DNA from: Eledone cirrhosa | Taxonomy: Eukaryota | DNA length: 64,000 nt | Assembly (NCBI GenBank): GCA_964016885.1 | Contig: OZ024741.1 | Location: 107,880,001-107,944,000, forward strand | Direction: 5' to 3' | The notes under the pieces: model-generated | The model's database searches: none | Told to the model about the DNA's origin: nothing | What the model saw: only the letters and a program-made list of their open reading frames with translations | Part shown: positions 62,645 to 62,756 of the stretch, piece after piece | Position numbering within the stretch: the first letter of the stretch is position 1 | How the letters are laid out: each line of letters starts with the position of its first letter | Translations under genes and position numbers: made by a program

Positions 62645-62756
62645 GGAATTACCCCTTGAGAAGATCGGCTATTTAAATACCAGGATAAATTTTCATTTAG
62701 TCCAGAATTAGCCGTCGAAACGGCTTGAGCTCAGCTGTCGGGGTCTTACTGGTTCC
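62645..62756 (+). ncRNA. variant type I hammerhead (UUGAGAA core, GUC triplet)
   Basis: acccc-TTGAGAA-gatcggcta...tagccgtc-GAAA-cggct-tgagctc-agct-GTC-ggggt. Confidence 0.75.

Follow-up and report, generated by a model that had tools for sequence, protein, structure and literature searches.

A young Hydra-like Penelope element of Eledone cirrhosa with a U3-A8 hammerhead motif and a possible transcription start in its loop II

We analysed a stretch of 64,000 nucleotides from Eledone cirrhosa (contig OZ024741.1, positions 107,880,001 to 107,944,000), hereafter called the window. Near its end lies a 5'-truncated, head-to-head insertion with microsatellite sequence on both flanks. The plus-strand arm (61292..62757) contains the C-terminus of a GIY-YIG endonuclease (stop codon at 61547-49), a 3' region of 1.1 kb and a hammerhead motif. 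It ends at about +18 in a (TC)n(TA)n run, where position 0 is C17 (window 62739) and +1 is the first base 3' of the predicted cut. The minus-strand arm (60196..61295) is inverted and 97.6% identical to the plus arm. It carries a second complete hammerhead (60393-60282) and an 83-nt tail, and ends at +103 in (TA)n. A sequence-only reading of the window had reported that the motif is linked to the endonuclease C-terminus of a Penelope-like element (PLE). This was confirmed, as both lie on the same strand with the endonuclease 1.1 kb upstream. A repeat of 130-140 bp with terminal inverted ends, which we take to be MITE-like, was found at 60064-60200 and 62837-62976, and also at 46207-46349 and 23809-23909. 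The first two copies lie one on either side of the main insertion, have the same orientation and are 91% alike. These 130-bp direct repeats were considered as a target duplication and rejected, since they are 91% alike compared with 97.6% for the arms of the insertion.

Three short head-to-head insertions were also located in the window. Their arms begin at -38 and -40 and end at about +100 and +20 (8558..8754), begin at -35 and -41 (21684..21883), or begin at about -38 and at -44 to -48 (30727..30932). More short stubs were seen at 4509-4592, 25159-25375, 29408-29522, 38252-38458 and 54986-55092, several of them from older subfamilies. The 64 kb of the window contain about nine insertions of the hammerhead-element lineage. 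The window also holds a 347-nt inverted repeat pair (10669-11015 and 22828-23174), 97% complementary and 11.8 kb apart.

The motif at 62645..62756 on the plus strand was assigned as a type I hammerhead with a U3-A8 core by sequence, folding and an alignment of 41 copies. A check of the sequence found every letter named by the sequence-only reading in its place: stem I at 62651-55/62740-44, the core TTGAGAA at 62656-62 (U3 U4 G5 A6 G7 A8 A9), stem II at 62663-71/62709-16 enclosing 37 nt, GAAA at 62717-20, stem III at 62720-25/62733-38, and GTC at 62737-39. The extension of stem I (ggaatt/ggttcc) corresponds to a distal helix (62645-50/62751-56) of four Watson-Crick and two G-U pairs. Folding and alignment resolved stem II (62663..62716) into G10.1-C11.1, a small internal loop and a 6-bp helix, in which a G-C/A-U double change separates subfamilies. 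The long insertion in stem II had been described correctly as to length, but loop II (62672-62708, 37 nt) is not empty, and a hairpin is predicted at 62683-62703. The GAAA, stem III and GUC triplet together span 62717..62739, and hammerhead RNAs are cut after the position that corresponds to C62739, which is the predicted cut here. The stem III loop is palindromic as the reading had stated, but the true palindrome is the 8-mer at 62726-33.

The sequence has a YUGANRA core (UUGAGAA), GAAA and an NUH triplet (GUC) at the right spacing. Three helices surround the core, with stem I open, in the minimum-energy fold of the isolated motif and in the 41 copies. The minimum-energy fold of the isolated 112 nt (62645-62756) was the hammerhead, with pair probabilities of 0.48-0.99 for stems I-III. 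A strict descriptor gave two matches in the window, the motif and its identical inverted twin, and none in 100 shuffled windows. The folding energy of the motif was not unusual (z 0.44), and in the predicted fold the hammerhead pairs fell to 0.1 or below once 85-200 natural flanking bases were added. An Rfam search of 54001-64000 gave 45 matches at E<=5, none of them to a hammerhead family, a result that is likely explained by the long loop II and the variant core. These results support the interpretation of the sequence as a type I motif of a Penelope-like element; it is almost certainly a genuine PLE hammerhead motif, and the U3-A8 form of the window probably cleaves at some rate. The reading had further proposed that the palindrome allows dimeric ribozymes. 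Cofolding through it predicted a favoured dimer with both cores intact (-69.1 compared with 2 x -26.3 kcal/mol), but the dimer is not required, because a stem III of 5-6 bp permits the monomer fold too.

The host is a Hydra-like Penelope element with an intact ORF of 717 aa and a unit of about 3.5 kb. Its single ORF (protein P0001) has a reverse transcriptase (RT) followed by a C-terminal GIY-YIG domain. The motifs are RWR at 37, a conservative change from RWK, DKT at 117, YRDD at 348, a CxCX5C linker at 572, YIGLT at 606, and CxxC at 670 and CxH at 698 around the conserved E and N; there is no GxKF/Y. The flanks show insertion into (TA)n. The unit measures 3,523-3,548 bp, compared with generally <3 kb in the Hydra clade, and the core is a variant rather than canonical. 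By its motifs, the element appears to belong to the Hydra clade; its likeness to published Hydra proteins was judged by eye. Pfam searches returned no family for the window peptide or for P0001, no match was found among PDB sequences, and database relatives of the element protein were about 40% identical. The 82-aa peptide of the window matched the 3.0 Gb genome with 100% identity at 150 scored places, and the ORF start had 188 matches genome-wide; the element is young, intact and very abundant. In tandem arrays, units of this length differ by 0-9 substitutions within an array compared with 3-66 between loci.

We next consider the 41 aligned copies, in which many columns are "invariant" because the search patterns had fixed them. 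Paired cells amounted to 85.7%, compared with 20-51% in slid controls. One pair of stem II reads A-U in 22 copies and G-C in 15. The 3-8 pair is U-A in 25, U·G in eight, C-G in three and another combination in five. Change on both sides was found in only 4 of 21 pairs, and shuffles did as well (385/500). The second stem II pair (A-U at 62664/62715) is kept in 3/41 copies and the closing U-A pair of stem III in 13/41. Among complete motifs matched by a looser pattern, position 7 takes all four letters while A8 was present in 100/100 of those listed. The sequence-only reading had noted that GAAA, GAGCTC and GTC are retained in shortened copies. The retention is real, but it is uninformative on function because the shortened copies are without the 5' half and, overall, 78-96% alike.

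Copies were counted genome-wide by matching sequence patterns. In the subfamily of the window, T3 and A8 were present in 100/100 of the matches listed, from 2,242; the sequence-only reading thus withstands its own refuting condition, a majority of CUGAGGA among full-length genomic copies. The looser pattern gave 5,659 complete motifs, and 1,255 complete copies have C3·A8. C3 marks a subfamily and is not a scattered mutation, as 15/15 listed copies of that loop type carry it (eye count). At C3·A8 loci, the endonuclease end lies upstream in 9/30, with 89-98% identity. In another subfamily, U3·G8 is found in 22/25 copies and A8 in none. An older family with 188 matches, 100 of them listed, has U-A in 82, C-G in 8, U·G in 7, C·A in 1 and others in 2 (eye count). 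The 3-8 Watson-Crick pair is therefore present in the window and its own subfamily, and missing from sister subfamilies. A general hammerhead descriptor run over the retrieved loci found near family only. The proposed compensatory change C3U+G8A holds in that U3-A8 is the norm of the subfamily, but pairing is not strict, since whole C3·A8 and U3·G8 subfamilies have been amplified. As a novelty the U3-A8 form had to be given up, because it was reported in 2011 (PMC3088659) and in Penelope elements in 2014 (PMC4209133).

A tree was built from 92 copies with positions 3 and 8 masked and a midpoint root; 51 near-identical young copies were left out and G8 rows were deliberately over-sampled. It shows a ladder from C-G to U-A with some U·G, then to the U·G subfamily, to U-A, to a C·A grade and to the current U-A. 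The C·A grade spans several supported nodes, and several long branches are unsure. By distance from the window copy, the current U-A rows lie mostly at 0-15%, most of the C·A grade at 16-28% and the two oldest C-G rows at 54%. From this order we infer that the latest step, to the U3 of the window, re-established a pair where A8 was already present. Along the ladder, the 3-8 pair is apparently favoured over time, but loosely, as mismatch states were amplified.

The ends of the copies were then compared. The main positions of 3' ends are +20 and +103, which account for 51/63 matches at pattern loci and 20/40 of the first unbiased set. The 3' half of the motif had 52,348 exact matches compared with 5,659 for the complete motif. 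Among copies of the young subfamily, 5,900 extend as far as -39 and 1,917 as far as -47. Mutation at about 1% per base cannot account for this wall, a loss of 67% over 8 nt. Two thirds of the young copies that reach loop II start within 8 nt of TTAGTC, 40 nt upstream of the predicted cut. When 27 distinct young copies were read, 23 were truncated, starting at -39 (9), -40 (8), -42 (3), -43 (2) and -44 (1); the pattern demanded -39, so that shorter copies were unseen in this sample. Unselected DNA amounting to 864 kb contained 33 copies: 18 start at -33 to -47, one at -48 to -83 and nine later, and five are complete. Overall, the majority of short copies start at -33 to -46.

The wall falls on TTAGTC (62697..62702, plus strand), with its A at -40. 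We take this word to fit the RNA polymerase II initiator consensus. YYAKTY occurs there in 34/41 aligned copies, old and young, and an initiator-like word occurs elsewhere in loop II in 8/41; the motif is short, and other loop II columns are conserved as well as it is. The candidate RNA 5' end suggested by the short copies is A62699/G62700 (-40/-39 from the cut). The sequence TATTTAAA, presumably TATA-like, lies at 62670..62677 on the plus strand, 29 to 22 nt upstream of the candidate start. It is found at -29 from the wall motif in younger subfamilies only and is missing from older ones. The loop II "insertion" is thus the site of the prevailing 5' end among copies of this family, which had not been noticed earlier. 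The positions of these ends make it quite probable that loop II marks an RNA 5' end, and we lean, with less assurance, towards a promoter start as its origin.

Long copies behaved differently from short ones. Among the 70 of 188 ORF-start matches examined, no wall start was found in long copies at 35 ORF-bearing loci (27 insertions that extend into the ORF by 1.5 kb or more and reach the region). In 20 further short stretches, from insertions of any length, 12 pass the wall region and none begins there. Full-length copies starting at -40 were sought and rejected, as none of the three copies that carry the ORF start and begin at -37, -43 and -39 continues beyond 1 kb. These data bear on whether the wall is a structural stop of RT at the loop II hairpin of an ordinary PLE hammerhead, with no promoter in the loop. 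The predicted hairpin at 62683-62703 does overlap the wall, and the starts are scattered over about 12 nt. However, a stop caused by structure would be expected on the second pass as well, and 0/27 long insertions halt there compared with the 67% loss on the first pass (binomial 7e-14 if passes are independent, as the comparison assumes). The hairpin also differs in older subfamilies, yet their short copies start at the same motif. We therefore regard the structural stop as improbable and consider that short copies may derive from an RNA ending at about -40 and long copies from a continuous template. Far less probable still is that the YAG of loop II is a splice acceptor (a pyrimidine-rich stretch, then TAG), or that the stubs form a single non-autonomous family that is copied whole. 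Penelope elements with an intron ending at the ribozyme are known, and the motif is YAG in most subfamilies. However, most copies retain AG or bases up to -44, their starts spread over several bases, no upstream exon recurs next to them, and the junctions vary from copy to copy and follow the letters of each subfamily.

On balance, we favour a young Hydra-like Penelope hammerhead whose loop II would hold a transcription start, located 40 nt upstream of the predicted cut. A capped RNA would initiate within loop II and would therefore carry only the 3' half of the upstream ribozyme. RT would begin at +20 and +103 on this capped RNA and run off its 5' end, leaving head-to-head inserts of 60 and 143 nt in (TA)n. 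Two internal RT starts described in the available text of PMC11167929 match the +20 and +103 ends. Long insertions and tandem arrays would arise from a template that has no break at the start site. The simplest such template would be a circle of unit length, formed when two successive hammerheads cut and the ends are ligated; a circle of this origin has already been proposed in print for Penelope elements. The upstream half-ribozyme would be completed by the downstream copy or by a second RNA, and removal of the cap would therefore wait for the other half, from the far end of the element or from a second RNA. In prediction, the two halves rebuild the full fold in trans (-26.5 kcal/mol). We put the circle as the template of long copies at slightly under an even chance. 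That the element starts transcription inside its own ribozyme, with the circle templating full-length and tandem copies and uncut RNA leaving more than 50,000 half-ribozyme stubs, can be offered as a whole only tentatively. Put forward jointly with it and equally tentative is the claim that the genome may preserve one lineage through all four core-pair states (C-G, U·G, U-A and C·A).

Composite copies provide a further view of the template 5' end. In eight composites with a jump from that end, the jump is at -39/-43 in 4/8, at +1 in 3/8 and at +14 in one. Three of eight at the predicted cut has a chance of 5e-4, allowing three positions, for a pattern noticed post hoc. No start at +1 to +3 was found in 21 unselected arms. 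The pieces starting exactly at the predicted cut are thus a weak hint of past cleavage, and as +1 is near the foot of stem III, a polymerase stall there may look alike. The composites (L132/L377, L148, L384, L387, L389, L391, L392 and L133) consist of a short 3' piece and a longer 5' piece, the latter ending at +219 to +928 of the element. Some of their junctions have an extra G before the start, possibly derived from a cap.

The loop II start could also be combined with a ribozyme that is a weak or idle passenger, its sequence being kept as a promoter and protein-binding site. Long copies would then owe nothing to circles and would arise when tandem arrays are read through or when a jump between homologous sequences leads to the 3' repeat. 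The C3·A8 and U3·G8 subfamilies were amplified, nine of 30 C3·A8 loci have the endonuclease end upstream, and template jumps were observed; with 1,255 C3·A8 copies, efficient cleavage may not be needed. In addition, the available text of PMC11167929 reports that hammerhead mutants had no effect on insertion in vitro and that no reads ended at the cut. Against an idle ribozyme, the lineage returns to the 3-8 pair, with U-A dominating three separate grades, stem II has a double change, and three composites hold pieces starting at +1. Read-through of arrays should leave many long copies starting at -40, and none was seen. We consider this explanation as a whole unlikely, but it is a serious rival in view of the C·A grade and of the in vitro finding in print.

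Several features of the element have been described in other systems. The part of Cervera and De la Pena (2014, PMC4209133) that was available describes about 1,300 U3-A8 matches in the Cercyon PLEs of Schistosoma mansoni. Like the present motif these are type I hammerheads in a PLE repeat, with a long helix II containing an irregular base, opposite-strand pairs and a model with dimers and a circle. Unlike here, stem III is absent or 1-2 bp in Cercyon. In the present family it has 5-6 bp and an 8-nt palindrome, loop II measures 37-39 nt, and the copies are near-identical and very young. Hydra-clade PLEs, according to the sections of Craig et al. (2021, PMC8557442) at hand, share the host motifs, (TA)n targeting, an inverted 5'-truncated arm, an optional tail and a hammerhead 3' of the ORF. 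However, the Hydra rows of file S2 are C3-G8 in 26/26, with a loop 2 of 3-10 nt and a stem III of 3-4 bp. The present family differs in its U3-A8 core, its loop II of 37 nt, its unit of 3.5 kb and its tail of 83 nt. Long loops II are listed in that work solely for two PLE-X elements of spike mosses (35 and 29 nt). The PAc (Poseidon) element of Anolis (Frangieh et al., 2024, PMC11167929) likewise has two internal RT starts bounding the tail, 3' of the hammerhead, and AT-rich targets. It belongs to another clade and has a canonical C3-G8, and a fixed 5' end within the ribozyme does not feature in the available text. Internal Penelope promoters (Schostak et al., 2008, PMC2377424; Arkhipova et al., 2013, PMC3846280) resemble the present case in having a start and initiator- or TATA-like motifs in the pseudo-LTR, but the start is not placed within a hammerhead in the available portions of these papers. 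The natural U3-A8 hammerheads of Perreault et al. (2011, PMC3088659) show the covariation from C3-G8 to U3-A8 and palindromic stem III dimers, but no C3·A8 or U3·G8 lineages in the part of the paper available. Searches of the literature outside subscription papers yielded no description of a PLE hammerhead that contains a start site or a fixed 5' end in loop II, nor of a Hydra-clade U3-A8 variant or a four-state core lineage. Similar hammerhead variants may be listed by Lünse et al. (2017).

The U3-A8 swap by itself is ordinary. The role of the hammerhead in Penelope elements is debated between the circle model and cleavage that is dispensable in vitro, the latter as given in the available text of PMC11167929. 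The present family leaves two fossil classes: the short copies share a fixed 5' end, which is never seen in the long ones. As the models treat these classes differently, the circle question becomes testable by ordinary RNA mapping, and the likely start in loop II gives a way to test what Penelope hammerheads do. The C3·A8 and U3·G8 subfamilies are natural variants with which to gauge the ribozyme activity that an element needs.

Some minor observations were made on relatives of the element. The gap between the ORF end and the hammerhead is about 680-750 nt in older subfamilies and about 1,150-1,270 nt in younger ones (e.g. L162, L278 and L163). The element is present on contigs of runs X4 and X5; X5 is from a second organism, whose close relative of the element has ends at +103. 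Beside one array, locus L060 (8387-10000) has five frames open for >500 codons on both strands, which is probably a low-complexity repeat. Locus L378 (G000:C2:356026000-356035999) is a non-autonomous, retrozyme-like array of seven 299-bp units, each consisting of the hammerhead, the tail and the first codons. Its hammerhead is a natural short-loop variant, in which loop II is shortened by a deletion ending exactly at -40.
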